Positions 1 to 11,741 of a stretch of DNA of 11,741 bases are shown piece after piece. Within the stretch, counting starts at the first letter, position 1. Each line of letters starts with the position of its first letter. The DNA lies in IMG/VR virus record IMGVR_UViG_2778261639_000023, positions 1-11,741 of that record; one strand, given 5' to 3'. The translations under genes and the position numbers were made by a program. The DNA comes from a virus (lineage: Duplodnaviria; Heunggongvirae; Uroviricota; Caudoviricetes). Below the pieces are notes generated by a model. The model did not search any database. It was not told where the DNA came from and saw only the letters and a program-made list of their open reading frames with translations.

Positions 1-1158
1 ATGCTCACCGTTAAGCAGATTGAAGCAGCAAAGCCGAAAGAAAAACCATACCGCCTTCTCGATGGTAATGGCCTGTACCTTTATGTCCCTGTATCCGGGA
101 AAAAGGTATGGCAGCTTCGCTACAAGATTGACGGTAAGGAGAAAATCCTGACCGTCGGAAAATATCCACTTATGACTTTGCAGGAGGCAAGGGATAAGGC
201 ATGGGCTGCGAGGAAAGACATCTCGGCTGGCATCGATCCGGTAAAGGCGAAAAAGGCTTCGTCTAACAACAATTCCTTTAGTGCGATTTACAAAGAATGG
301 TACGAGCACAAGAAGCAAGTATGGTCAGTAGGGTATGCGACTGAACTTGCCAAAATGTTTGATGACGACATTTTACCCATCATCGGCGGTCTTGAGATTC
401 AGGATATTGAGCCGATGCAACTGCTGGAAGTAATCCGCAGGTTTGAAGATCGCGGTGCAATGGAGCGAGCCAACAAAGCCCGCAGAAGATGCGGCGAAGT
501 TTTCCGTTACGCTATTGTCACCGGAAGGGCTAAATACAACCCGGCACCTGACCTTGCAGACGCCATGAAGGGATACCGCAAGAAGAACTTCCCGTTTCTT
601 CCTGCAGACCAGATCCCGGCATTTAATAAAGCACTGGCAACATTTTCAGGAAGTATCGTATCGCTCATTGCCACCAAGGTTTTACGCTACACAGCCCTAA
701 GAACGAAAGAGCTTCGTTCCATGCAATGGAAGAACGTCGATTTTGAAAACAGGATTATCACCATCGACGCCAGTGTGATGAAAGGACGCAAAATTCATGT
801 GGTTCCTATGTCAGACCAGGTAGTTGAACTTCTCACTACGCTAAGCTCAATCACCAAACCAGTCTCAGAGTTTGTTTTTGCCGGGCGCAACGATAAGAAG
901 AAGCCAATCTGCGAGAACGCGGTATTGCTTGTGATCAAACAAATCGGCTATGAGGGTCTGGAAAGCGGTCACGGATTCAGGCATGAATTCAGCACGATTA
1001 TGAACGAGCACGAATGGCCTGCTGATGCTATTGAAGTGCAACTGGCACATGCCAACGGCGGATCTGTGCGCGGGATTTACAACCATGCTCAGTATCTCGA
1101 TAAGCGCAGAGAAATGATGCAGTGGTGGGCGGATTGGCTTGATGAGAAGGTGGAGTGA
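1..1158 (+). CDS. intS: Phage integrase, tyrosine recombinase (P4/IntS-type with N-terminal arm-binding domain)
   Basis: 385-aa ORF. N-terminus MLTVKQIEAAKP...YRLLDGNGLYLYV is the signature of the DUF4102 arm-binding domain of P4-family integrases. C-terminal catalytic region has HGFRHEF (HxxR) and a late Tyr (RGIYNHAQY). From memory it closely resembles E. coli K-12 CPS-53 IntS, which also sits beside a gtrABC-like operon; not verified by search. Confidence 0.93.
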   Translation: MLTVKQIEAAKPKEKPYRLLDGNGLYLYVPVSGKKVWQLRYKIDGKEKILTVGKYPLMTLQEARDKAWAARKDISAGIDPVKAKKASSNNNSFSAIYKEWYEHKKQVWSVGYATELAKMFDDDILPIIGGLEIQDIEPMQLLEVIRRFEDRGAMERANKARRRCGEVFRYAIVTGRAKYNPAPDLADAMKGYRKKNFPFLPADQIPAFNKALATFSGSIVSLIATKVLRYTALRTKELRSMQWKNVDFENRIITIDASVMKGRKIHVVPMSDQVVELLTTLSSITKPVSEFVFAGRNDKKKPICENAVLLVIKQIGYEGLESGHGFRHEFSTIMNEHEWPADAIEVQLAHANGGSVRGIYNHAQYLDKRREMMQWWADWLDEKVE

Positions 1159-1311: not shown

Positions 1312-1674
1312 ATGTTAAAGCTATTTGCAAAGTACACCTCGATTGGTGTGCTGAACACACTTATACACTGGGTGGTTTTTGGTGTTTGTATCTATGCAGC
1401 GCATACAAACCAGGCTCTTGCAAACTTCGCAGGTTTCGTTGTGGCTGTGAGCTTTAGCTTCTTCGCGAATGCAAAATTCACATTCAAAGCTTCGACTACA
1501 ACGATGCGCTACATGTTATATGTCGGGTTCATGGGAACACTGAGTGCAACTGTTGGATGGGCTGCTGATAGATGTTCACTTCCTCCAATTGTCACTCTCG
1601 TCACCTTCTCCGCCATCAGCCTGGTGTGCGGTTTCGTCTATTCAAAGTTCATTGTCTTTAGGGATGCGAAATGA
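1312..1674 (+). CDS. gtrA: GtrA, bactoprenol-linked glucose translocase (flippase)
   Basis: 120-aa small hydrophobic protein with about four predicted TM segments, the typical GtrA size. Immediately precedes gtrB with a 4-nt ATGA overlap. Confidence 0.9.
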
Positions 1675-2597
1675 AGATATCTCTTGTAGTTCCTGTCTTC
1701 AATGAAGAAGAAGCGATACCAATTTTTTATAAAACGGTACGTGAGTTCGAAGAGTTGAAGCCATATGAAGTGGAAATTGTTTTCATAAATGACGGAAGCA
1801 AAGACGCTACGGAGTCAATTATTAATGCTCTGGCTGTTTCAGACCCGCTGGTTGTTCCGCTGTCATTTACACGAAACTTTGGTAAAGAACCAGCATTGTT
1901 TGCAGGGCTAGACCATGCAACCGGAGATGCTGTAATTCCAATTGATGTTGACCTGCAAGATCCGATTGAGGTTATTCCCCACCTCATCGAAAAGTGGCAG
2001 GCAGGCTCTGATATGGTGCTGGCTAAGCGAACTGATCGCTCAACTGACGGACGACTGAAACGCAAAACGGCAGAGTGGTTTTATAAATTGCACAACAAAA
2101 TAAGCAACCCAAAGATCGAGGAGAATGTCGGCGATTTCCGGTTAATGAGCCGTGAAGTTGTCGAAAACATTAAGCTTATGCCAGAGCGCAACCTTTTTAT
2201 GAAAGGTGTGCTGAGTTGGGTTGGCGGTCGCACAGATGTTGTCGAGTATGCACGCGCAGAACGAGTGGCAGGCAGTACTAAATTTAATGGATGGAAACTG
2301 TGGAACCTGGCACTTGAGGGGATCACAAGCTTCTCTACTTTCCCGTTGCGCATGTGGACTTACATTGGCCTGTTCGTAGCTGGAGTTGCGTTCATGTACG
2401 GAGCGTGGATGATTGTCGATACGCTGGCATTTGGAAACGCAGTGCGTGGTTATCCATCCTTGCTGGTTTCCATCCTTTTCCTGGGTGGCATACAACTGAT
2501 TGGTATTGGCGTCCTAGGTGAATACATTGGAAGGATTTACATTGAAGTTAAAGGCAGACCAAGATATCTAATTAAGGCACGCAAGAATGAAAAATAA
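1671..2597 (+). CDS. gtrB: GtrB, bactoprenol glucosyltransferase (GT2 family)
   Basis: 308 aa. N-terminal GT2 signature ([12 protein letters not shown]...INDGSKD...DVDLQDP) and C-terminal TM helices, typical of GtrB/ArnC-like polyprenyl-phosphate glycosyltransferases. Translationally coupled to both neighbours. Confidence 0.93.
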
Positions 2598-3987
2598 ACT
2601 ACTTCACTGGTCTGTAGAAGGTTTGGCGGCCATTTTTATAGTCATTGCCTTTAGTTATTACTTTGGGTATGCCTTCACCAATCCAGATTCAGTTATTTAC
2701 AAGATAATTGCTGATGGAATAGTCAAGCACGGAGATCTTCCATATACCTTCGCCTTCGATCATAAGCCAGCTTTTATTTTCTATACTTACGCACTATTTT
2801 CACTTATCTATCCATTTAAGGTAGGCTTTTTCGCTGCCTTTTCGCTTCTTTTTTATCTTTTTACGGGATCATTGATATCTAAGCTAGCGACAGGTAGTTT
2901 CAAGCATGCATTGAGCTCTTCTGCTGCGGTGCTGTTTTTCTATTTCCCATTTCTTGATTTTTCTGGCAATACCGAGATTGTGTATAACCTCTACGCAATA
3001 GCATCTCTTTGCCTGCTTTACTGCTATAGCGCAGGATCAATGTTATTGTTTTTTTCTGGGGTGCTGGCAATTTTTGCGGTAAACACTAACTATATGGCAG
3101 GCGTAATGCTTTCACTGCCAACAATATATTTATTAATGCGAGATGGACTGAGTCCAACTGCCAAAAGGGCTGCATGGTATGCATTAGGAGTGATTGCTGG
3201 ACTTGCTATTATCCTTTTACCTATTGCTATGCAGGGATCATTGATTAGTGGTTATTTCGAGCCGCAAATTCATTTCTTAACCTCATATAACGAATCATCG
3301 CCTGGTTTCAAAACAACACTTTATTATTACTTACCTGTTCTACTGAGCATTCTTATCGCTCCGGCTTGTGTATTATTTGGATGGGTAAAGCGGGACGTTC
3401 CTGCAAGAGGGTGGGTTGCATTTGTAATCACCACCATCTCTGCATCAATAACCCTTATCTTAACAGGTAAGGAGGGTATGCATTACGCAGCCATTTACTT
3501 TGCTCCTGTTGCAATGCTAGCCGTGGCTATGGGAAGAAACCCTGTACCCATAGTGCTGGCATGCTCAATACCATTTAACTTTTACTATGCAAAGAACACT
3601 GAATATCTGTTCGAGTTGCATAACCGAGTAGAGCTATCTTATACCAAAGCTAAGGCTGAGGAGTTTGCTGCGATGCATCAGCTTGTCGGTAATGAGAAAG
3701 TGATGTCAATAAGGGCTTCGCATGTCTTATTCTACCTGTCAGACATGATCCCTTTCCATCCTTACATTTGGAACGGCCATTCAAAACTTGTATTTGGTGA
3801 TAAAGAGAATGAGTATTTTATCAAACAGTTGGAATTATCTCCTAAGTTCGTTCTTACTGGCAATGGATACTGTGAGAAGGCTGATCGCATGATTGATGTT
3901 TGCGATATGATAAAACATCATTACACCAAAAAGATGAGCATTAGCTGGGCGTTCGGATACGGTGGTGATTTGTATCAGGCTAAGTAA
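2587..3987 (+). CDS. gtrC: Serotype-specific O-antigen glucosyltransferase (GtrC / Gtr-type, polytopic membrane protein)
   Basis: 466-aa highly hydrophobic multi-TM protein in third position of the gtr operon; start overlaps the gtrB stop by 11 nt. Strongly AT-rich (about 37% GC in hand-sampled lines), as expected for horizontally acquired type-specific gtr genes. Specificity cannot be inferred. Confidence 0.8.
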
Positions 3988-4014: not shown

Positions 4015-6231
4015 CTACACTTCCCACCATCCTTGTGCTCCTGACATCTTGATAAATGTTTTTGACCATCCATTTCCTGTTTTTGTTTCCGTGCCAACAC
4101 TTAGAGGCACTATTCTATTTTCGGATGCTGTACTGCTAAATATAAACGTAACACTAGAGGATAAAGATACTCCGCGTATCACCACTCTGTCTCCGGGCTT
4201 ACCTCCTGTGATTGTGTCAATGCTTTTAGTTGCGGACGATATCCATACATTGCCATGCGAGAATGGAAGTACTGATCCAGTCAATGACTCAAGGGGTTTT
4301 GATGGGCATGGCTCACCATAGATTTGTGGGTCGTTTACACCTGCTGGAATAAGCAGTGTGGAGTTATACTTATTACCTGATCCATAAAGAGTTGGCTCAG
4401 TTGCTCCGCTCCATGTAATAGGGTAATGAGCAACAGATTTCATAGTAAAATCGTTATCACGCAACCTTAAAATGCACGCCTGAGCATTGATATACGTTAA
4501 GGCACCGCTGTTTGCCATCGCGTCAAACCAGTTGCTTCTGAATGTGGCGTCAGCGTTGTTGAAAACAACAACCGGGTCGAGTTGAGATGCTGCTGATGAA
4601 CCCCAGAGATGCGCCTTGAAGGTGCAGTTTTGTACCTTCATTCCTTTGACACTTCCTATGCGCATGAACTGGAAGCAGTTTTTTAGAATAACGCCATCAA
4701 CAATAATTGCCCCATCAGAGAAGAATGAAGGGTTTATTGCTGGTTGGGCATGTAACCCACGAAATGCCGAGTCGATGTTACCGCCTAAAATATGAACCTT
4801 GCCCATATTACCGAAAATTCGGTAAGCAGTACTCAAGTCAACTTTAGTTGACTGCACCTCGCAGTTGATAAACATAAACGTGTGATCGAAGTTTGACCAT
4901 GAAGGTAGCGGGTCGCCAGTGGAGCCGTCTTTGTCGGTGGTAATAATCTGGACGCTGGAGTTAGCGTATACAGTGTCATCGCTGAACTTAATCTTCATGT
5001 TTTCGAAGATAACGTTCTGCGAATAACGCGTAATTCCACGGTCTCCAGAGTAGCAATAACAAGCTGACTTCGTGTTGTAGGCTGTGATGTTGAGAAAATA
5101 CGCGTTGTAGCATGATGCCACTCGCCACCATCCATCACAGGTAGACACGTTTTCTACATTAAACCGCTCGACATGAATATTGTAAGGATGCAAACCATTT
5201 GTCATGGTTGAGTTTGTTGCTGGGTTTTCCGGTGCCAGACCATACTCAAAGTTACATCCAAATTTCCAAGGCCCTCCACTTATCAGGCAGTCATGCAGTC
5301 TAATGCCATCTAATTCCCCCATTCCGCAAACAACAAACCCATTGTTTAAACCTTTCCCTGTAACATTATAAATTCTGTCAATCTCAACGTCACTGGTCAT
5401 TGCACTTCCAAGATATTGACCACCAACCCAAATCATTACAGTTTGAGGCGCTGATGGATTGCTGGCGGTTGCATCTGCCCTTGTTTCTGCAACGTCATAT
5501 ACAAAGTTGGATATGCGGACTTTTTTTGAATTGTAAACGACGAAAGTATGGTTCGCGCGACCACCTGATGTAGGAATAAACCCTTGGACGTTATCCATTA
5601 TCTTCGCGCCATTGAAGTTCAGCGTGATATTACTGACTCCAATGCATTGCACGGTGCCGGTAAGGAGATACGTACTGGATGGATTGCCAATAAACTCCAC
5701 ACCCACGCCGCTGTAGGTGGTGATGGCGGTGTTTAGCGCTGCAGAGCTATCAAGAACACCCGACTTATCTACGCCCGGCAGATCGTCGATAAACATGAAT
5801 ACACGATCAAGGTATTGCGTGAGATTAACGCCGCCCTTGGTACCAATCAGGTTTGTTCCTGGAGGGTCAAATGAAGCTAATTGCTGACTGAACTGATCAG
5901 GATCATACTTCAGCACATTAGGGAAATAGAATTGCCGCGCCCCATACGCATCATAAACAGCCATAGAATGGCCTTGCTCAGTTACGAACTTGGTAATCTG
6001 TCCATTATATACAGGGTAACCAGCAGCGTTAATGATGATTGGTTGCGAAACAGGAACGTGAGAGCCGTCTTCGTTTTCCACATAAACCTGAATCTGGTTT
6101 TCAGGATTTACCGGGTCAGTGTCAATTTTACCGATATAAATTTTGCCATTGGCTACGGCTTTAAAAGAACGAGCCATAGTGAAGAGTTGCGAAGGCATGC
6201 TGACCACAACATTGGCGGTGATATCTGACAT
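4015..6231 (-). CDS. Tailspike protein (P22 gp9-type N-terminal head-binding domain plus divergent beta-helix receptor-binding/enzymatic domain)
   Basis: N-terminus [59 protein letters not shown] closely matches the P22 tailspike N-terminus as recalled ([59 protein letters not shown]). Start moved from the track's 6279 to the ATG at 6229-6231, which has a GGAG Shine-Dalgarno 8 nt upstream and aligns with the P22 start. 738 aa. Confidence 0.9.
5890..6231 (-). other. Tailspike N-terminal capsid/head-binding domain (conserved module, about residues 1-114)
   Basis: Conservation with the P22 head-binding domain continues through ...[10 protein letters not shown]...[10 protein letters not shown], then similarity to P22 is lost. 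Boundary is approximate. Confidence 0.75.
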
Positions 6232-6352
6232 TTCATTGCTCCAGACGAATGATATGATGCAACCATGATGTGATTGCATACCGAAATGGTACTATTGAGT
6301 ATTTATCCAGTAGGTTACGATGCCATTCCACCCAACTGGTGAGGCATCAAGG
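6232..6352. promoter_or_regulatory. Divergent control region between tailspike (-) and mnt (+); candidate promoters and operator-like inverted repeats
   Basis: 121-bp gap. Inverted repeat TGCAA-N11-TTGCA (about 6259-6279) and ATGATG direct repeats one helical turn apart (6254-6259, 6265-6270) on the tailspike side; CACC-N5-GGTG inverted repeat (about 6329-6342) overlapping the mnt RBS (GAGG 6342-6345). -10-like TATCAT on the minus strand about 20 nt upstream of the tailspike ATG; possible TTGAGT/TACGAT pair for mnt. Functional sites are unproven. Confidence 0.45.
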
Positions 6353-6619
6353 ATGTACAGCAAATACGACGAGGCGCAGTTTCACTTGAGACTTCCGCAT
6401 GAACTCCACGCGAAAATTAAACAGCGTGCGAAGATGAATAACAGGTCGCTGAACTCAGAGATAATTGCAGCGATTGAAGAATCGTTGGCTAAACAAAGCT
6501 CTGCATCCGTTTACATTGACGATGCAGAGCGTATGGCAGAACAACAATCTGATATGGTTAAGAAAATGGTTTTTGAAACGCTTAAGACCATGTATAGCAA
6601 TAATAAAAAGGAAACATAG
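6353..6619 (+). CDS. mnt: Mnt-like ribbon-helix-helix repressor (immI region)
   Basis: 88 aa from the ATG at 6353 (GAGG SD 7 nt upstream; the track's extra 11 N-terminal codons are unlikely). Aligns along its length with P22 Mnt as recalled: RHH region ...QFHLRLPHELHAKIKQRAKMNNRSLNSEIIAAIEESL and C-terminal tetramerisation region DAERMAEQQSDMVKKMVFETLK (P22: DAERLADEQSELVKKMVFDTLK). Confidence 0.85.
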   Translation: MYSKYDEAQFHLRLPHELHAKIKQRAKMNNRSLNSEIIAAIEESLAKQSSASVYIDDAERMAEQQSDMVKKMVFETLKTMYSNNKKET

Positions 6620-6689
6620 AAATCTAGTTTCCGGCTAAAATGGCATTGCCTTCATGATATCCTGTGAAAAACTAAGGAGAGTTAACCAT

Positions 6690-7175
6690 ATGAAAAAATC
6701 ACTGTTAATTATCCCGCTTCTGCTGGTTGGATGCGCAAAAGTAAGTGACTATCAAGCAAGTTGCGAACAACGCTATCAAAAGCTTAGCGATATGGCTAAT
6801 TGCCTTGATGCTAGTGTGAAGAACGACTCACGCATGGCATCTGCACCAACACCTAAGCTGTATGTCCTTGCTGCAAAGATGCTCGGGCAAGGTGTTGATG
6901 AAGGTAAAATAAGTGACGCACAGGCAAGACTTGAGCTTCAAAATCTTTATGTTCAATTACAAAGCCAAGAAAAAGCCCAACAAATAGCGCAAAGCCAAGC
7001 ATTCCAGCAGGCTTTATTGAATTATCAGGCTGTAAACACAATGCAAGCGATCGAGCAAAAAGCGAGACAGCCTGTTATAACTCAACCCTATCCAACACGC
7101 GTTGACACTTACACAAACTGCAATTCAGGGTTTGGAAATACAGTCACATGCAACAGTAGCAGTAACATAAGATAA
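6690..7175 (+). CDS. Lipoprotein of unknown function (moron at the sieA-equivalent position); type II signal peptide, Gln-rich coiled-coil-like segment, Cys pairs
   Basis: Start at ATG 6690 with strong SD AAGGAGA (6675-6680); 161 aa. MKKSLLIIPLLLVGC has a lipobox (LVGC; Cys15 at 6732-6734) with Ala at +2, suggesting outer-membrane sorting. Mature part has Cys pairs (SCEQ...NCLD; TNCNSGFGNTVTCN) and a Q/A-rich heptad-like stretch (LQNLYVQLQSQEKAQQIAQSQAFQQALL). No family recognised. Confidence 0.75.
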   Translation: MKKSLLIIPLLLVGCAKVSDYQASCEQRYQKLSDMANCLDASVKNDSRMASAPTPKLYVLAAKMLGQGVDEGKISDAQARLELQNLYVQLQSQEKAQQIAQSQAFQQALLNYQAVNTMQAIEQKARQPVITQPYPTRVDTYTNCNSGFGNTVTCNSSSNIR

Positions 7176-7265: not shown

Positions 7266-9263
7266 CTATTCTGACAACGCATCAGACTTAGCCCCCTGAG
7301 TCAGGGCGTTAATGGCCTTTTGTGCCTGCTGCATGGCTTTCTCGAACGCTGTTGATCCGCGTTGGGTGTTTGCCATTCGGAGCATTGCATTTCTGAATGG
7401 CTCGCTCTCATAGGCGCGAGTAAGAAGTCCATAGCTTACCGCTGCGCCAGTTGTCGCAGGGTTCATTGCTGTCCCATATCCGATAATGAACGGGATGGTT
7501 TGCTGCCCTGTTGGTGTTGTTACTGCCGCTTTTGCAGCCTGCTGCGTGGATTGCAGGTAGTTTTTCAATCCTTTCAGATAAGCGGCTTCCTGACCTTTAA
7601 ATGTGATGCCAGTCTGGTTTTGCAGGATGTTAAGCTGCCGAAGGAACTGGTCAGGGGATCCGCCAGATTTCTCCATCGCCTTTCCAATGATGCCATTGCG
7701 CATTTGCGCCCTGCCAACACGACCAACTGAGTTATACAGCGTCTTAATTTCAGATTTGTTCTTGCTGAATAGCATGTTGTTGACAACTTCCGGCGTCAGA
7801 TCGCCTTTCATGAGAACATTCTTCAGCCTGGTATTCTTGAGTTTCGCCGCTTCGTCAGCGTAGACGGCATTGGCCTGCTGATATTTACGGAGAGTATCGT
7901 TGCCAAGATTCTGACCAATGGCACCATTGATATCGTCGGTCATCGCCTTGTAAACGCGCTGAATGGCGGCATCGGAACGGTTTGGTAACACTGGTCGCTC
8001 ACCCTTCACGTCCATTCTGAACTGGCTGCGCAGATCGCTTAATTGCTTCAAGTCCAGATTTACCGGACCATCAGGACCAGCATTGCGAACAAGCTCATCA
8101 CGATATGACTGAAGTTTTGAAATAGTCTCGTTATCAGCGACCTTACCAAGCTTCTGCAGATTAGATATTTCTGTATCAATCTGCTGAATTGCTCGCGCAG
8201 GCTGAATGTTTACTCCAGCCATAGCATTCTGAACCTGCTCCAGTCGATTACCGGCGGCACGACGAATTCCTGATGTTTTCGCTTTAAGGCTGTCAATAAC
8301 AACCGCTGGATCATACTCACCGAATTTATCGGCAAATCTCTGCACCAGCTGGCTTCTCGCTTCCTGTTGCGTTGCTCTCATTCCGCTTGTGCCAGCCAGA
8401 GGGATATTTTCTGCTGTAGTCTGCGCCATTTTTCCGACGCGGGAAGTTGGTTGTAACAGGTCTGTGGTGTGCAGAGGAACTCCTTCACGCTCTGCAAATC
8501 TGATAGCCTGCTGCGCTTCTGGCGCGATAGCACCACGAACGCCACGATAAGCAGCACCTAATCCACGTCCGGCAGCGTTAATAGCACCGCCAGCAAGTAC
8601 ACCAACGCCTAAATCGGTGGCGAGTGCTTCCGCATCATCTTTCGCACTATTTGCAGCAAGTGATCCAACTGCGTTTTCTGCTAGAAGGCGAGTTGCCCCC
8701 TGAGCAATTCGACCAGCAAGTGTTGGTGCCTGTGTTGCCGCTCTCTCAACGCCAGCAGGAGTGAGGTAAGGCAATGCTTCAGCAAACACCCTGCCCTCTG
8801 TAGTTTGTGGAGTCAGCGCGCCTTGCTGAAGGCCAAAGTCCTGCTCTAATCCCTGCGTTGTTACTCGTGGCGATGGTTGATATGTACCATCGCCAATGCC
8901 GAGTTTACCGCCAGCCCAAGCCGCCGCGCTTGTTACAGCATCGGCAACTGATGCAGGTATGTTTGCCACGTTCACGCCAGCCTGCACCAGTCCGCGACCA
9001 GTCTCTTTTACTGCTTCGCCAAGATCAGACATAAATCCACTTTGCTGTGGTTGTTGCTGTGCTACTGGTTGCTGTGTCTCCACTTGCTGCACAGATAGCA
9101 ATGGATAGGCAGCATAGAAAGCTTTCTTAGCCTGCTCTGCATTTTCTCCGGCTTGCGGGGCCACGACTTCATTGAAGTATTGCTCCTGAGCCTGCGCTTT
9201 TTGTTCTGGTGCTAACGCCTGATACTGTGGAGAGGCGATAACATCTTTCCATGCTTTAGCCAT
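7266..9263 (-). CDS. Ejection (DNA-injection, E) protein, P22 gp16-like
   Basis: 665 aa, Ala/Gln/Gly-rich with low-complexity segments. Last gene of the minus-strand cluster, directly before the immI/tailspike region as gene 16 is in P22-like phages. Start ATG (9261-9263) overlaps the upstream gene's stop as TAATG. Assignment rests on size, synteny and composition, not verified alignment. Confidence 0.7.
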   Translation of the reverse strand: MAKAWKDVIASPQYQALAPEQKAQAQEQYFNEVVAPQAGENAEQAKKAFYAAYPLLSVQQVETQQPVAQQQPQQSGFMSDLGEAVKETGRGLVQAGVNVANIPASVADAVTSAAAWAGGKLGIGDGTYQPSPRVTTQGLEQDFGLQQGALTPQTTEGRVFAEALPYLTPAGVERAATQAPTLAGRIAQGATRLLAENAVGSLAANSAKDDAEALATDLGVGVLAGGAINAAGRGLGAAYRGVRGAIAPEAQQAIRFAEREGVPLHTTDLLQPTSRVGKMAQTTAENIPLAGTSGMRATQQEARSQLVQRFADKFGEYDPAVVIDSLKAKTSGIRRAAGNRLEQVQNAMAGVNIQPARAIQQIDTEISNLQKLGKVADNETISKLQSYRDELVRNAGPDGPVNLDLKQLSDLRSQFRMDVKGERPVLPNRSDAAIQRVYKAMTDDINGAIGQNLGNDTLRKYQQANAVYADEAAKLKNTRLKNVLMKGDLTPEVVNNMLFSKNKSEIKTLYNSVGRVGRAQMRNGIIGKAMEKSGGSPDQFLRQLNILQNQTGITFKGQEAAYLKGLKNYLQSTQQAAKAAVTTPTGQQTIPFIIGYGTAMNPATTGAAVSYGLLTRAYESEPFRNAMLRMANTQRGSTAFEKAMQQAQKAINALTQGAKSDALSE

Positions 9264-10696
9264 TAATCACCCCATAGTGAAGAAAAGTTACTGCTGGCTG
9301 CTGGCTGTGATACCTGTGTGGGTTGAGATTGCTGCCGCTGAGATTTACCAACATTAACGTTATATTGTTGGTTGTAATTGTTGGTGTATTCCTGAATCTC
9401 ACGAATCGACTGCTGCATAGCCTCCGGGCTTGAATAGTCAACCTGCGGCATCCCCTGAAAATACATCTTCGCTTCTGCTACGGTGTTAATACCACTGGCA
9501 CCCATGTCCCTTGCTGCCGCCACGCCCTGATTCTGCATTCTTCCCTGAATACGTTGTGCTGAGTTATATAACTGACGCTGATCTTTTCCTGTTAATCGGC
9601 TGCGAACATCAGCACCAATTGCCGGGTTACCTGCACCGCCGGTCATTCCTGTCATGAAATCGAGAGCAGAAGCGTCTGCATTTGCGATCGCGTCGATATC
9701 CTTCTTCATGGCATAGTTTTGTGCTGATGCAGACGATGTTGCAGGCGCTGCGATTGAACTGGCAGGAACGCGAACCATATTCCCCTCGTTGTCGATGCCT
9801 TCGTAGAACGCATTTGCCCCAGCGCCGTGAAGTTTCCCGCCAACCGTTACCGTTCTACCATCTGCCAGTTGCACAACATTCTCCCCGCCAGCATCAGGAC
9901 GGCCTCGAACACGAAGATATGTCTTTTGTTGCTCTGGAGACAGGCTGTTGAAATATTGATATTCTTTAACAGATGCAGGAACAGCACCTCCAGCAGTGCG
10001 CAGGGAGTTTTCACGGCTAACAGCAATGCTTTGCGCCTGTAAACCTTCCCCAGCTTTATTGCTGCGAATCGTCTCTGCCAACTCGCCACGCTCAATATCC
10101 CGACCAGCCATCTTGTCCTGAACATTGAAGTAATCAATCGGACCAAGCGCAGCCATCCCAAGATGATCAACAAATTCTGTGAAACCTTGTGGATTTTGCT
10201 GATACATTTTCGCCACATCCAGAGGGTCTACTCCGGCACGAGTAAGCTCAGATGAGTTGTTCTGCAACCATGACATCATGGCTTCTGGAGATGAAGCTGC
10301 GAGTCTGGCACTTGCTGCCAGTGTACCGACAGTGGAACGCTGGTCTTCATCGACAAATTTCATGCCGTTTCTTACAGCGTCAAACTGCTCAGGATACTGT
10401 GATGCCAGTTTTCGCATTGCATCGCGGTCGCCAGATGTATATGCATCAGCATAAGCCTGCTGAAACTCTTGCTGCCGCTTCTGCTGATCCATCTGCTTAT
10501 ACATATCCATGACAGATGAAATGCCCTGCAAAGCCTGCAAGCCAACGTTATTACGTCCTGAACGCTCCATCTCATTATTCTGTCGAATGTATGCAAGCGT
10601 GGCGTCTGCATCACTTGCTCTTGGAGCGTTGGAGTTCATGCCGCCTAACCCGGCAAGAAGCGCGCCTGAATTACCAGCCTGTTGCCATGTAGCCAA
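9263..10696 (-). CDS. Ejection (E) protein, P22 gp20-like
   Basis: 477 aa (P22 gp20 is of similar size), immediately upstream of and coupled to the gp16-like gene. Apparent TTG start at 10694-10696 with a strong GGAGG SD 6 nt upstream; an in-frame stop precludes a longer N-terminus. Confidence 0.7.
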
Positions 10697-10708
10697 GAGA
10701 CACCTCCA

Positions 10709-11032
10709 TTAAAACAGTGAACCAAGAAGGCCGACGCCAGCACCAATTGCTGTACCCCAACCAGGCATGATTGCAGTACCTGCAGCTGCACCTGCCGCAG
10801 CTCCACCCAAGGCGCTCTGAAATCCTGATGGTTTAACTCCGGATGGTTGGGTTATAGTGCCGAAGAAACTAACCGCTGAGAACGGCGCTAAGGGTGTGCT
10901 ATCCGGTGAATTTTCAGAAACGACGTTTATAAGCTGCCCGGAATGTTTTGGCGATGATGATTGCGATACCTGTGACGGTAGCGGGCGGATTGAAATTAAA
11001 GTACCAGTCACGTGGACGACCATAAAATCCAT
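10709..11032 (-). pseudogene. Possible 3' remnant of an ejection-protein gene (gp7-like) with C-terminal glycine-zipper segment; extent and intactness uncertain
   Basis: Stop TAA (10709-10711) sits 1 nt before the gp20-like SD, so the 3' end is in operon context. C-terminus ...ALGGAAAGAAAGTAIMPGWGTAIGAGVGLLGSLF looks like a membrane glycine zipper. N-terminal two-thirds is Ser/Pro-rich low complexity with no SD before either ATG (11032 or 11021), and 107 aa is far shorter than P22 gp7 (about 229 aa). It overlaps a plausible + strand ORF. Confidence 0.35.
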
Positions 11033-11093
11033 CTGGGATAAAGGTATTGCGTATTTTTCAGCAGAACCGAGGCAGGAGGTTAACCGTGGCTAA
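10857..11093 (+). CDS. Hypothetical small Cys-rich (zinc-finger-like) protein; conflicts with the minus-strand ORF 10709..11032
   Basis: 78-aa ORF containing CPEC-x5-CDTCDGSG (CxxC...CxxCxGxG, reminiscent of DnaJ-type zinc knuckles). Its end overlaps the start of the downstream ASCH-like gene by 8 nt, suggesting coupling. Weaknesses: GTG start and poor SD. Confidence 0.3.
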   Translation: MPKKLTAENGAKGVLSGEFSETTFISCPECFGDDDCDTCDGSGRIEIKVPVTWTTIKSIWDKGIAYFSAEPRQEVNRG

Positions 11094-11370
11094 CCTGCAA
11101 CTTGCAGTCAAAGGCGAATACTTCGATGCCATGATTCGCGGAGAGAAAACAGAAGAATATCGCCTGTGTAATGACTACTGGAATAAGCGCCTCGTTAACC
11201 GCGAGTATGGCAGTCTGATCATCACGAAGGGATATCCGAAGCGCGACGATTCCAGCCGCAGAATTGATGTTCCGTATGACGGATATGAAATCAAGACAAT
11301 CACACATCCGCACTTCGGTGATAAACCGGTAAAGGTGTTCGCGATAAAGGTGAATATCGGCAATGAATAA
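11086..11370 (+). CDS. ASCH/PUA-like domain protein (DUF3850-like)
   Basis: Start chosen at GTG 11086, preceded by a perfect AGGAGG (11074-11079) with 6-nt spacing; the track's TTG at 11047 has no SD. 94 aa. Motif ...KGEYFDAMIRGEKTEEYR...GSLIITKGY... fits the beta-barrel ASCH/DUF3850 pattern common in phage accessory regions. Confidence 0.65.
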   Translation: MANLQLAVKGEYFDAMIRGEKTEEYRLCNDYWNKRLVNREYGSLIITKGYPKRDDSSRRIDVPYDGYEIKTITHPHFGDKPVKVFAIKVNIGNE

Positions 11371-11374
11371 CAAT

Positions 11375-11429
11375 CCTCGCACTCGCGGGGATTTCTTTTA
11401 TCTGAACTCGCTACGGCGAGTTTTGTTTT
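11375..11429 (+). terminator. Two tandem hairpins downstream of the ASCH-like gene; the second is a good intrinsic terminator
   Basis: Hairpin 1: CCTCGC-actc-GCGGGG (11375-11390, one G-U pair) followed by ATTTCTTTT. Hairpin 2: ACTCGC-tacg-GCGAGT (11406-11421, 6-bp stem, 4-nt loop) followed by TTTGTTTT (11422-11429). Confidence 0.55.
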
Positions 11430-11441
11430 ATGGAGATGATT

Positions 11442-11741
11442 ATGGCCTGTTCAACATTCAACCCTCTAACGTTACAGAAATACCAGCCAGACCCTGAAGA
11501 TTTATGCTCACTGTGTGGCGGAAATCATGGTAAAGCCGCCATGATCGAATGTAAGGACAAAATCCACATATGCCTTAATTGCGTTGATGTCCTCGTTGAT
11601 ATCAAAAATGATAGAGAAGATAAAAAGCGTAGCGAGGCTGTTCGCGCCTTAGATTCATGGATGCGAGATGGGTATAGTGCCGCGCAAATTTATGACTTAG
11701 CAATATCAAAAGGCGAAATACCAGGAGTGCGCATCGAATAA
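11442..11741 (+). CDS. Hypothetical zinc-ribbon protein (CxxC-x16-CxxC)
   Basis: Start chosen at ATG 11442 (GGAG 11432-11435, 6-nt spacer); 99 aa. Contains CSLCGG...HICLNC, an N-terminal zinc-ribbon-like motif, followed by a charged helical C-terminal half. Ends exactly at the window edge with TAA. Family not recognised. Confidence 0.55.
   Translation: MACSTFNPLTLQKYQPDPEDLCSLCGGNHGKAAMIECKDKIHICLNCVDVLVDIKNDREDKKRSEAVRALDSWMRDGYSAAQIYDLAISKGEIPGVRIE

Follow-up and report, generated by a model that had tools for sequence, protein, structure and literature searches.

A defective P22-like prophage at argW of Escherichia coli with a probable PL-operon tail beside a large internal deletion

The window analysed here, i.e., the whole stretch of 11,741 nt, is part of a defective P22-like E. 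coli prophage that is located at argW, measures 12.3 kb, and has suffered an internal loss of ~28 kb. As described in the original prediction, three small open reading frames (ORFs) follow one another on the plus strand at its end (10857-11093, 11086-11370, and 11430/11442-11741). In our reading, an internally deleted P22-like prophage has kept here the PL-distal tail of its early-left operon ('ea' or exo-xis), and the intact parent of the remnant was a Lederbergvirus of the Sf6/HK620/HF4s type. For this explanation as a whole, including the type of the parent, we estimate a probability of about 0.88.

Prophage remnant and chromosomal site

On the chromosome, yfdC and tRNA-Arg(CCT) border the remnant at one end and xis and the csc genes at the other, and annotations at the remnant loci include yfdC, tRNA-Arg, and intS. 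A direct repeat of 15 nt, TGGTGTCCCCTGCAG, is present in two copies that lie 12.3 kb apart. Compared with locus L007, the window shows one mismatch in 11,741 bases. The window begins at the ATG of int and ends at the stop codon of ORF3; a circular mini-element with these ends was ruled out by the chromosomal flanks (yfdC/argW and xis/csc) with their att repeats.

Within the window, the genes run from int to a truncated gp7, which is joined straight to the truncated ea22, the ASCH gene (ORF2), and ORF3. The order in intact relatives (HF4s, Sf6, 933W, and L006) is EaA/Ea22, ASCH, a small gene, xis, attP, int, and gtrABC, followed in opposite orientation by the tailspike gene, gp16, gp20, gp7, and gp14. 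An early-region origin of the ORFs had been suggested, and it is borne out by these relatives, which place the genes at the promoter-distal PL (ea / exo-xis) end, just upstream of xis. The ~28 kb that were lost contained the head, tail, lysis, replication, immunity, and recombination genes, PL, and the antiterminator.

In E. coli K-12, argW is also occupied by a decayed P22-like element, a defective prophage of the CPS-53 (KpLE1) type, with an IntS-type integrase beside yfdC and argW and with gtrA/gtrB/gtrC-like genes thereafter. The present remnant retains the tailspike gene, mnt, gp16, gp20, and the ea-xis end, in which it may differ from CPS-53.

Deletion junction and ORF1

The features of the region are compiled in Table 1. 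The deletion junction lies within a minus-strand ORF of 107 aa (10709-11032), in which the gp7 remnant continues into antisense ea22 sequence. Pfam P22_gp7 (PF25688) matched only residues 64-107 of this ORF, corresponding to profile positions 181-230 of 230 (E-value 9.5e-8; 32.6 bits vs. a cut-off of 28); the match does not extend over the ~230 profile positions of a full-length gp7, and the sequence is a remnant. Alignment with gp7 of HF4s and Sf6 confined the homology to the C-terminal glycine-zipper tail, i.e., to the last ~44 residues. The match to Ea22 begins at position 10834 in every reference. On the gp7 side, the breakpoint is fixed to a few bases only, and a close intact progenitor of the same gp7/gp20 type was not found.

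A 45-mer spanning the junction was present as an exact copy in 10 fetched E. coli loci; an exact-match scan detected it in none of 5,426 complete E. coli genomes and in none of the species-representative genomes. The deletion is probably recent.

Two copies of the heptamer GATGGTT, 11 nt apart, flank the junction, and a microhomology-mediated deletion was considered for this reason; both copies have been kept.

Table 1. Features at the junction and in the adjacent plus-strand region (positions refer to the window).
Feature	Position	Strand	Description
gp7' remnant	10709..10833	-	~last 42 codons and stop of a P22 gp7-type DNA-ejection gene
Deletion junction gp7'/'ea22	10833..10834		placed within ~3 nt; stands for ~28 kb of lost prophage
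3' fragment of ead/Ea22-like gene	10834..11093	+	C-terminal domain, DnaJ/anti-TRAP-like CxxCxG-x3-CxxCxGxG zinc motif
ORF1	10857..11093	+	GTG, 78 aa; within the ead/Ea22-like fragment
AGGAGG Shine-Dalgarno (SD) of the ASCH gene	11074..11079	+	6 nt before GTG 11086; inside the last codons of the upstream gene
ORF2, intact ASCH-domain protein	11086..11370	+	GTG, 94 aa; GKER octapeptide subgroup; homologue of 933W L0064 and HF4s_0022
Hairpin 1 with T-rich tail	11372..11403	+	stem-loop 11372-11393, 9 bp with 5 GC; tail TCTTTTATCT; terminator scan, RNA fold
Hairpin 2 with tail	11404..11433	+	stem-loop 11404-11423, 8 bp with 4 GC; tail TGTTTTATGG running into the SD of ORF3
ORF3, intact 99-aa protein	11442..11741	+	homologue of 933W L0063 and Sf6 gp19; putative N-terminal ClpX-type C4 zinc finger

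The juxtaposition of the region to a truncated late operon had already been pointed out. The late operon is indeed truncated and adjacent, but it was a ~28-kb deletion, and not a designed arrangement, that brought the two together in this defective prophage. ORF1, which had been taken for a zinc-knuckle gene, is a dead gene fragment because the deletion has spared only about 86 codons at the end of an ead/Ea22-like gene, which it fuses to the 3' end of gp7. Homology to Ea22 starts abruptly at the junction, an in-frame TGA (10818-10820) is located upstream of this point, and the GTG at 10857 is an internal valine codon of the ead/Ea22-like gene, the 5' two thirds of which are deleted. The 78 residues of ORF1 represent the C-terminus of an Ea22-like protein of 245-263 aa, and the DNA of the fragment is 94.6-99.0% identical to the 3' ends of intact genes for such proteins of 245 aa (L006, 3523-4260) and 263 aa (L005, 5469-6260). 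In the full-length relative from L006, Pfam Ead_Ea22 (PF13935) covers residues 2-113 (E-value 3.8e-28), a part that is absent from the window. The window product, of which only the last ~86 residues are left, did not match PF13935 and is a fragment of a member rather than a member; it matched PHROG 60 (4.3e-19). Searches against NCBIfam returned no match for ORF1 or ORF2.

As an alternative, the deletion might have given rise to a new mini-protein with a function of its own, in which the DnaJ-like zinc-finger domain stands alone and starts at GTG 10857. The retained stretch does coincide with one separate domain, the C-terminal one, of the modular Ea22-like protein, and the frame of 78 codons is kept open in all remnant copies; these copies are near-identical, however, so that the kept frame is uninformative on selection. 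Furthermore, no SD precedes GTG 10857 (the upstream sequence being GGTTGGGTTATA), no promoter was found, and gene callers reported no gene at the fragment in the 10 fetched remnant loci. A new mini-protein is therefore extremely improbable, and ORF1 is a pseudogene fragment that has neither its native start nor a promoter.

Gene assortment in related phages

The region closely resembles its counterpart in lambdoid and P22-like phages, the exo-xis or 'ea' region (933W L0063-L0065, Sf6 genes 19-20, and HF4s_0021-0023), with DNA identities of 93-98% that apply to window positions 11062-11741 for 933W, 11364-11741 for Sf6, and 11085-11440 for HF4s. The order just upstream of xis, the junction with SD and overlap, and the hairpins between genes are all the same. 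Unlike in these phages, the operon of the remnant has lost its promoter-proximal part together with PL; it begins with the last 260 nt of the Ea22-like gene, and the gp7 remnant, in opposite orientation, takes the place of what lay upstream. The exo-xis region is known to be early-expressed, dispensable, and mosaic (PMC8614690).

The original prediction viewed the ORFs as a distinct accessory cassette, possibly a moron. In its strongest form, this reading takes the three small genes for a self-contained unit that has expression signals of its own, ends in terminators, and is selected as a whole for host takeover or counter-defence. The genes are small and tightly packed and have terminator-like hairpins after them, and the exo-xis region carries dispensable accessory genes (PMC8614690). 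In addition, several prophages (L015, L018, L021, and L022) have the ASCH gene next to ORF3. Each of the two genes also occurs alone, though, i.e., the ASCH gene without ORF3 in HF4s and L006, and ORF3 without the ASCH gene in Sf6, L017, and L020, which shows that the genes recombine independently among relatives. Moreover, ORF1 is truncated, and a search for sigma-70-like promoters between 10400 and 11741 found none. The combination of an own promoter upstream and a terminator downstream, by which a moron is recognized, is lacking, and in intact relatives the genes are arranged serially within the PL operon. PADLOC defence models gave no meaningful hits. Finally, the hairpins are situated between ORF2 and ORF3, and not at the end of the set. 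A self-contained cassette is thus very unlikely, and we retain the reading of the region as an operon tail.

Hairpins and expression signals

Two terminator-like hairpins on the 3' side of ORF2 had been predicted, and both passed an intrinsic-terminator consensus scan, having a GC-rich stem-loop directly followed by a T-rich tail. The RNA fold of the segment with both hairpins reached -27.3 kcal/mol (z = -4.25), and none of 200 shuffled sequences was as stable. Irrespective of the flanking genes, both hairpins have been conserved across 20 related loci, and in L005 a gene of 801 nt sits between the two. A search of Rfam at a permissive threshold yielded only chance matches over the hairpins (Leu_leader, 20.8 bits vs. 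50; rsmX, 20.7 bits vs. 56). Judged by their sequence, the hairpins appear to be boundary sequences that resemble intrinsic terminators and serve as linkers between interchangeable genes. They seem comparable to the terminators of the lambda PL operon (tL series, N-antiterminated), which likewise combine GC-rich stems and U-tracts within an antiterminated early operon. They also resemble the mosaic 'boundary sequences' of HK620 and Sf6 in being kept between otherwise unrelated genes; the Sf6 record marks 'bsq' nearby, whereas the hairpins themselves are not among its annotated features.

In principle, the ORFs could be chance frames and the hairpins chance palindromes. Small size is all that speaks for this. 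ORF2 has hundreds of homologous clusters and strong family matches, ORF3 belongs to a small, well-conserved family, both contain conserved motifs, and the hairpins show the conservation and stability described above. The chance reading has next to no probability and is already refuted by conservation.

In an intact phage, PL would transcribe these genes, and an antiterminator of the N/gp24 type would allow the polymerase to pass the hairpins toward xis; without antitermination, the hairpins would insulate xis. Together with the shared SD and the stop/start overlap, they could also act as patches of homology for gene exchange among mosaic relatives. Having lost PL and the antiterminator gene and having no recognisable promoter, the remnant probably carries ORF2 and ORF3 as silent passengers. 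Expression may still occur from a weak or unconventional promoter, or by read-through from Pmnt over 3.5 kb of antisense gp16/gp20.

ORF2 encodes a phage ASCH protein

For ORF2, GTG 11086 was taken as the start, while the ORF listing extends the frame to TTG 11047. The perfect AGGAGG and the overlap of 8 nt with ORF1 (11086-11093; GTGGCTAA) were confirmed as predicted. The same SD and the same GTGGCTAA overlap recur in relatives after unrelated upstream genes (Ea22, DUF551, DUF4752, and Sf6 g20), all of which end in QEVNRG, QEVNHG, or KEEGRG followed by the stop codon.

The protein had been called ASCH/DUF3850-like, of which the ASCH part stands. The ASCH signature, an octapeptide near the N-terminus that reads GxKxxExR or GxKxxTxR, is represented by G19-E-K21-T-E-E24-Y-R26, i.e., by the GxKxxExR form, and G19, K21, E24, and R26 are invariant in an alignment of 29 homologous sequences. 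ORF2 matched PHROG 625 (1.1e-49), and its homologues, for which NCBI uses the name 'ASCH domain-containing protein', fall into 654 clusters from Enterobacterales. Pfam ASCH (PF04266) stayed below threshold (14.2 bits vs. 21.2; E-value 0.072), with only residues 6-28 aligned. DUF3850 (PF12961) was not among the Pfam matches at E ≤ 0.1, and one metagenomic homologue (P0110) bears the DUF3850 name from its source. PDB searches with the single sequences of ORF2 and ORF3 gave weak matches only. The AlphaFold2 model of ORF2 had a pLDDT of 82.5. In a Foldseek search of the PDB with this model, the first 13 matches were all ASCH proteins (probability 0.69-0.99, TM ~0.5, E-value 0.01-0.3), and the best folds were all ASCH/PUA-like, i.e., 2z0t, 3iuw, 1xne, 5gus (ZmASCH), and 9kyh (YqfB), with probabilities of 0.87-0.99 and E-values of 0.01-0.12. 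With moderate confidence, the model suggests that ORF2 adopts the small PUA-like beta-barrel fold of solved ASCH structures.

ORF2 thus shares with E. coli YqfB, T. thermophilus TthASCH, Z. mobilis ZmASCH, and the ASCH domains of human EOLA1/TRIP4 the GKER-type GxKxxExR signature, a predicted PUA-like beta-barrel of ~95-110 residues, and the best fold matches. It differs from these proteins in that identity amounts to only 12-20%, the Pfam match is below threshold, and the gene is phage-borne. ASCH proteins of both the GKER and the GKTR group deacetylate N4-acetylcytidine (ac4C), and the Lys and the Glu/Thr are essential (bioRxiv 10.64898/2026.02.27.708502). Because ORF2 has kept the Lys and the Glu of the GKER octapeptide, its most likely role would be that of an ASCH hydrolase or binder directed at ac4C or RNA. 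A literature search for an anti-defence role of phage ASCH proteins returned nothing relevant.

[quoted passage not shown]

The last ORF had been described as a zinc-ribbon protein that ends at the window edge, and both statements hold, the TAA being the last codon of the window and closing on its last base. The best start is ATG 11442 and not 11430, as GGAG (11432-11435) is placed 6 nt upstream and the PHROG profile and the homologues begin there. In the protein, a zinc finger (Cys 22, 25, 44, and 47) is followed by a long helix and then by a hypervariable segment, and the tail at the C-terminus is conserved. The spacing in the 99-aa form is CxxC-x18-CxxC, rather than the CxxC-x16-CxxC given previously, and is identical to that of C14, C17, C36, and C39 in the aligned sequence of E. 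coli ClpX. [quoted passage not shown] ORF3 matched PHROG 3680 (6.6e-69), and its DNA is 96-98% identical to 933W and Sf6.

A profile of the close family (A2) produced no match in the PDB, and a more diverse profile (A4) gave significant matches. With A4, the top seven were ClpX ZBDs, and nothing but ClpX ZBDs was matched (E-values 1.6e-7 to 9e-3). hhalign of the family against ClpX residues 1-60 resulted in a probability of 96.9%, and 10 of 15 family members matched Pfam zf-C4_ClpX (PF06689) at E ≤ 0.01 (best 3.3e-11); ORF3 of the window alone remained below threshold (15.7 bits vs. 27). Foldseek with the AlphaFold2 model of ORF3 (pLDDT 76.9) revealed no significant match to PDB or viral structures; the solved ZBD 2ds5_A appeared at rank 11 (TM for the target 0.68, 32% identity, E-value 3.0). 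A library-wide profile search recovered 20 representative clusters among 1.84 billion proteins, i.e., a tiny family, and ClpX was not among these matches.

ORF3 resembles the N-terminal ZBD of ClpX (PDB 1ovx and 2ds5-2ds8; PF06689) in the four cysteines with the same spacing, in a similar following helix, and at the profile level. Unlike ClpX, it is a stand-alone protein of 99 aa with its own helical tail and hypervariable segment; an AAA+ ATPase module is absent, and the NCBIfam ClpX equivalogs align at their positions 5-56 only. On sequence grounds, ORF3 can be classified as a stand-alone ClpX-type C4 zinc finger followed by helices, the similarity being significant at the family level. This link appears to have gone unannotated so far. 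The most likely role would be that of a zinc-dependent dimer that mediates protein interactions and is related to the ClpX domain at which adaptors dock.

A more specific idea is that the L0063/Sf6 gp19 family, to which ORF3 belongs, acts as a decoy of the ClpX ZBD that reprograms ClpXP proteolysis early in infection. Its targets could be adaptors that dock to the ZBD (SspB and RssB) or N-domain-dependent substrates such as a phage replication protein, or it could form heterodimers with ClpX. The ClpX ZBD is a docking platform for SspB and RssB (PMC7226468), which favours this idea, as do the exclusive profile matches, the identical cysteine spacing, the helix of distant members, and the early expression that is suggested by gene position. 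On the other hand, the similarity is restricted to ~40 residues of a common treble-clef zinc finger, and ClpX has nothing that corresponds to the variable middle or to the conserved tail at the C-terminus, so the finger may serve dimerisation alone. A literature search for a phage ClpX-ZBD mimic or zf-C4_ClpX protein found no relevant precedent. Taken together, a decoy function is rather unlikely. We know of no phage protein that acts on ClpX as a ZBD mimic. In the version we formulated, the family would be an early, PL-made mimic that titrates SspB, RssB/sigma-S, or O-type replication proteins, or that caps the ClpX ZBD, and its hypervariable middle would reflect adaptation to different targets; as a joint proposal, this is distinctly unlikely.

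Implications

ORF2 and ORF3 are well-known conserved phage genes with putative roles, and both have near-identical counterparts in 933W, Sf6, and many prophages. As a cautionary case, the remnant illustrates that a tidy 'cassette' beside a truncated operon can be what a large deletion has left behind in a prophage that is decaying, with one of three 'genes' being a fragment. Assignment of ORF2 to the GKER subgroup, which deacetylates ac4C in tRNA, would suggest a specific assay. 933W L0063 and Sf6 gp19, listed as 'unknown function' in PHROG 3680 and as 'hypothetical protein' in RefSeq, could be annotated as a stand-alone ClpX-type zinc finger. Such an annotation would provide one concrete and testable ClpXP hypothesis for the exo-xis region, which is poorly understood in Stx and P22-like phages.

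Operon end of a decayed P22-like prophage

The whole window is a segment of a P22-like (Lederbergvirus) prophage, and 10857–11741 corresponds to the distal end of the ea/exo–xis operon, which has been beheaded in this deletion-decayed argW prophage. In HF4s, Sf6, 933W/EDL933, and the strain ws5-3 prophage, the intact gene order reads, in window orientation, EaA/Ea22 → ASCH → small gene → xis → attP → int → gtrABC ← tailspike ← gp16 ← gp20 ← gp7 ← gp14. In a prophage linearized at attP, this order places int at one terminus and the ea genes with xis at the opposite terminus, ~40 kb away. The int-to-ea distance in the window is 10 kb, compared to ~40 kb in intact relatives. Downstream of gp20, just the last ~42 codons of gp7 are followed directly by ea-region DNA on the opposite strand, which bears out a truncated late operon alongside the small genes.

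Features of the window and their coordinates
Feature	Position	Strand	Remarks
int	1–1158		
gtrA/gtrB/gtrC-like genes	1312–3987		
gtrC-position gene	2587–3987	+	466 aa, after gtrA and gtrB; no domain in precomputed Pfam
Tailspike	4015–6279	−	
Mnt-like repressor and PHROG 6067 ORF	6320–7175		
PHROG 6067 ORF	6654–7175	+	173 aa (called as 161 aa); 7.4e-110
gp16	7266–9263	−	
gp20	9263–10696	−	
gp7-tail ORF	10709–11032	−	107 aa
In-frame TGA	10818–10820		
ORF1	10857–11093	+	GTG start, 78 aa
AGGAGG	11074–11079		6 nt upstream of GTG 11086
ORF2	11086–11370	+	94 aa from GTG; ORF prediction extends to TTG 11047
Hairpin 1	11372–11393		terminator-like, T-rich tail (terminator scan)
Hairpin 2	11404–11423		terminator-like, T-rich tail (terminator scan)
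ORF3	11430/11442–11741	+	103 or 99 aa; TAA on last base

The original prediction had described three small plus-strand ORFs, ending at the window edge, as a possible early-region or moron cassette; the observation was largely confirmed and the interpretation partly supported. The genes do belong to the early region. They do not form a self-contained module, because ASCH (ORF2) and ORF3 assort separately (ASCH without ORF3 in HF4s and locus L006; ORF3 without ASCH in Sf6 and loci L017 and L020), the gene upstream of ASCH varies among relatives, no sigma-70-like promoter was found in 10400–11741, PADLOC returned no match, and Rfam returned no family. Weak plus-strand promoter-like matches further upstream (6225, 6438, and 9338) were below chance expectation in number.

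Regarding other genes, the gtrC-position product is presumably a serotype-specific O-antigen glucosyltransferase; both its gene and the tailspike are kept in the remnant. The PHROG 6067 ORF, which matched nothing in Pfam or PADLOC, lies downstream of the Mnt-like repressor, in an immI/sieA-like position between mnt and gp16.

Deletion junction and ORF1

All ea-side alignments begin at window position 10834 (SKA5 and PhiR phages; 760 E. coli genomes; loci L005 and L006, which hold intact Ea22-like genes and whose ea-side DNA is 94.6–99.0% identical to the window). In the gp7-tail ORF, residues 64–107 alone match Pfam P22_gp7 (profile positions 181–230 of 230; E 9.5e-8, above threshold), alignment to HF4s and Sf6 gp7 is confined to the glycine-zipper tail, and the remainder is antisense ea22. 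Since ea homology starts at 10834 and the gp7 match is limited to the C-terminal part, the breakpoint lies at 10833/10834 (± ~3 nt). Measured against HF4s (39.4 kb), the prophage has lost about 28 kb, comprising the genes for head, tail, lysis, late regulator, replication, immunity, and recombination, as well as the early-left promoter PL and the antiterminator. Two copies of GATGGTT, 11 nt apart, flank the junction at 10825–10851 (CCTGATGGTTT / AACTCCGGATGGTTGG); a simple microhomology deletion is unlikely, as both copies are retained.

The main correction concerns ORF1, which, judged by its sequence, is a pseudogene fragment rather than a gene. Its frame corresponds to the last ~86 residues of complete ead/Ea22-like proteins of 245 aa and 263 aa (...TPDGWVIVPKKLTAENG...QEVNRG*), its GTG encodes an internal valine of the Ea22-like protein, within 'GWVIVPKK', and the in-frame TGA stands five codons ahead of the start of Ea22 homology. 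Between ASCH and gp20, gene callers placed no gene in 10 fetched remnant loci.

Distribution and chromosomal site

By exact-protein look-ups, several draft assemblies of E. coli were found to share this arrangement. Locus L007 (GCA_020514385.1) differs from the window by 1 mismatch in 11,741 bases, and the junction 45-mer is matched exactly in 10 fetched loci; among 5,426 complete E. coli genomes, not one covered the junction, and it was absent from the species-representative genomes searched. The remnant is probably a recent, lineage-restricted deletion derivative. It is flanked on one side by yfdC/tRNA-Arg(CCT), i.e., argW, with an IntS-type integrase, and on the other by xis, a DUF4942 fragment, and csc sucrose genes. 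Copies of a 15-nt direct repeat (TGGTGTCCCCTGCAG, the tRNA-Arg CCT 3' end) lie at the two edges of the remnant, 12.3 kb apart (L007 8559–8573 and 20858–20872). Both int and xis are intact, and the remnant might still be excisable.

Hairpins and mosaic joints

The two hairpin terminators predicted after ORF2 were recovered as terminator-like hairpins. As RNA, the 80-nt hairpin segment folds with −27.3 kcal/mol (z = −4.25), which none of 200 shuffles equaled, and the pair is nearly unchanged in 20 related loci regardless of the flanking genes. In the E. coli EC6622 prophage (L005 6290–7169), an 801-nt gene of unknown function lies between the hairpins, each of which is followed by a T-tract and ATGG; the inter-hairpin space thus behaves as a gene-insertion slot.

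A similar picture emerged at the ASCH joint (window 11062–11093, compared to L002, L003, L004, L015, and L018). The genes preceding ASCH are mutually unrelated (Ea22-like, DUF551, DUF4752, and Sf6 gene 20), and they have common ends (..QEVNRG*, ..QEVNHG*, or ..KEEGRG*), a common embedded SD, and a stop/start overlap (GTGGCTAA, or ATGGCTAA in Sf6); therefore, the 3' end of the upstream gene contains the mosaic joint. Sf6 has this joint together with the opening ~35 nt of ASCH, and the gene body is missing. Like the annotated boundary sequences of Sf6, these short conserved segments resemble joints at which interchangeable genes recombine, and they would also carry signals for translation and termination. 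Going by what is established for lambda and P22, PL-operon terminators of this kind would be read through by N/gp24-modified polymerase and would otherwise insulate xis and int.

ORF2 and ORF3

ORF2 and ORF3 are already known, conserved phage genes. ORF2 (PHROG 625, 1.1e-49) is the homolog of 933W L0064 and HF4s_0022, and it has homologs in 654 clusters across Enterobacterales, under the NCBI name 'ASCH domain-containing protein'. Its predicted 8-nt overlap with ORF1 (GTGGCTAA) and perfect AGGAGG were both found. The Pfam ASCH score is sub-threshold (14.2 bits; cut-off 21.2), and the predicted ASCH-like character is supported by the octapeptide GxKxxExR (G19, K21, E24, and R26 invariant in the family alignment) and by the AF2 model (pLDDT 82.5), whose 13 best PDB matches are all solved ASCH proteins (among them PH0355, 3iuw, PF0470, ZmASCH, and YqfB; prob 0.69–0.99, TM ~0.5). 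Removal of N4-acetylcytidine (ac4C) from nucleosides and tRNA has been shown for ASCH proteins of both the GKTR (YqfB) and GKER subgroups, with Lys and Glu/Thr being essential (2026 preprint, 10.64898/2026.02.27.708502). As the ORF2 octapeptide is of the GKER type, the protein would most likely be an ac4C-directed or RNA-directed hydrolase or binder. In one remnant copy (L013; ENA ERZ16268202 scaffold_32), a 42-bp in-frame tandem duplication within ASCH at the equivalent of window 11333 (TCAAGACAATCACACATCCGCACTTCGGTGATAAACCGGTGA) results in a 108-aa product.

For ORF3 (PHROG 3680, 6.6e-69), the PHROG profile, homologs, and GGAG at 11432–11435 favor ATG 11442 as the probable start. Its homologs 933W L0063 and Sf6 gp19 are 96–98% identical at the DNA level. 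This is a very small family, with 36 clusters when grouped at 90% identity and 20 representatives in a set of 1.84 billion proteins; every member with a name comes from Enterobacteriaceae. A strongly conserved N-terminal zinc-finger region (YQPDPEDLCSLCGGNxGKAAMIExKDKIHICxxCVDLL) is followed by a basic helix, a hypervariable middle (~residues 62–88 in the close-family alignment), and a conserved tail (IYDAIxxGKIPxIRID). Chimeric relatives occur: in P0006 the C-terminus differs, and in P0035 and P0157 the ORF3 C-terminal part is joined to other N-termini.

Instead of the predicted CxxC-x16-CxxC, cysteines 22, 25, 44, and 47 (99-aa form) form CxxC-x18-CxxC, the spacing of ClpX. On its own, ORF3 resembled ClpX weakly (Pfam zf-C4_ClpX, E 0.014; NCBIfam ClpX, E 0.003; PDB 2ds7, E 0.08), and the close-family profile had no PDB match; the link became significant only after distant members from the search of 1.84 billion proteins were added. 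The best seven PDB matches of this broader profile were exclusively ClpX N-terminal zinc-binding domains (ZBDs; top E 1.6e-7), hhalign gave 96.9% probability against ClpX residues 1–60, and 10 of 15 family members individually matched PF06689 (best 3.3e-11). Foldseek on the ORF3 model (pLDDT 76.9) yielded no significant match, with the ClpX ZBD at rank 11 (TM 0.68 on target). From these profile comparisons, we conclude that ORF3 encodes a C4 zinc finger of the ClpX type that stands alone and is extended by a helical part; ClpX itself was rejected, as the AAA+ module is missing.

In ClpX, the ZBD forms dimers and is the docking site for the adaptors SspB and RssB (PMC7226468), and therefore it is a reasonable hypothesis that ORF3 might act as a decoy or competitor; no precedent for this was found in the literature searched. 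The one modestly new point is that the L0063/gp19 family can be assigned a ClpX-type zinc finger.
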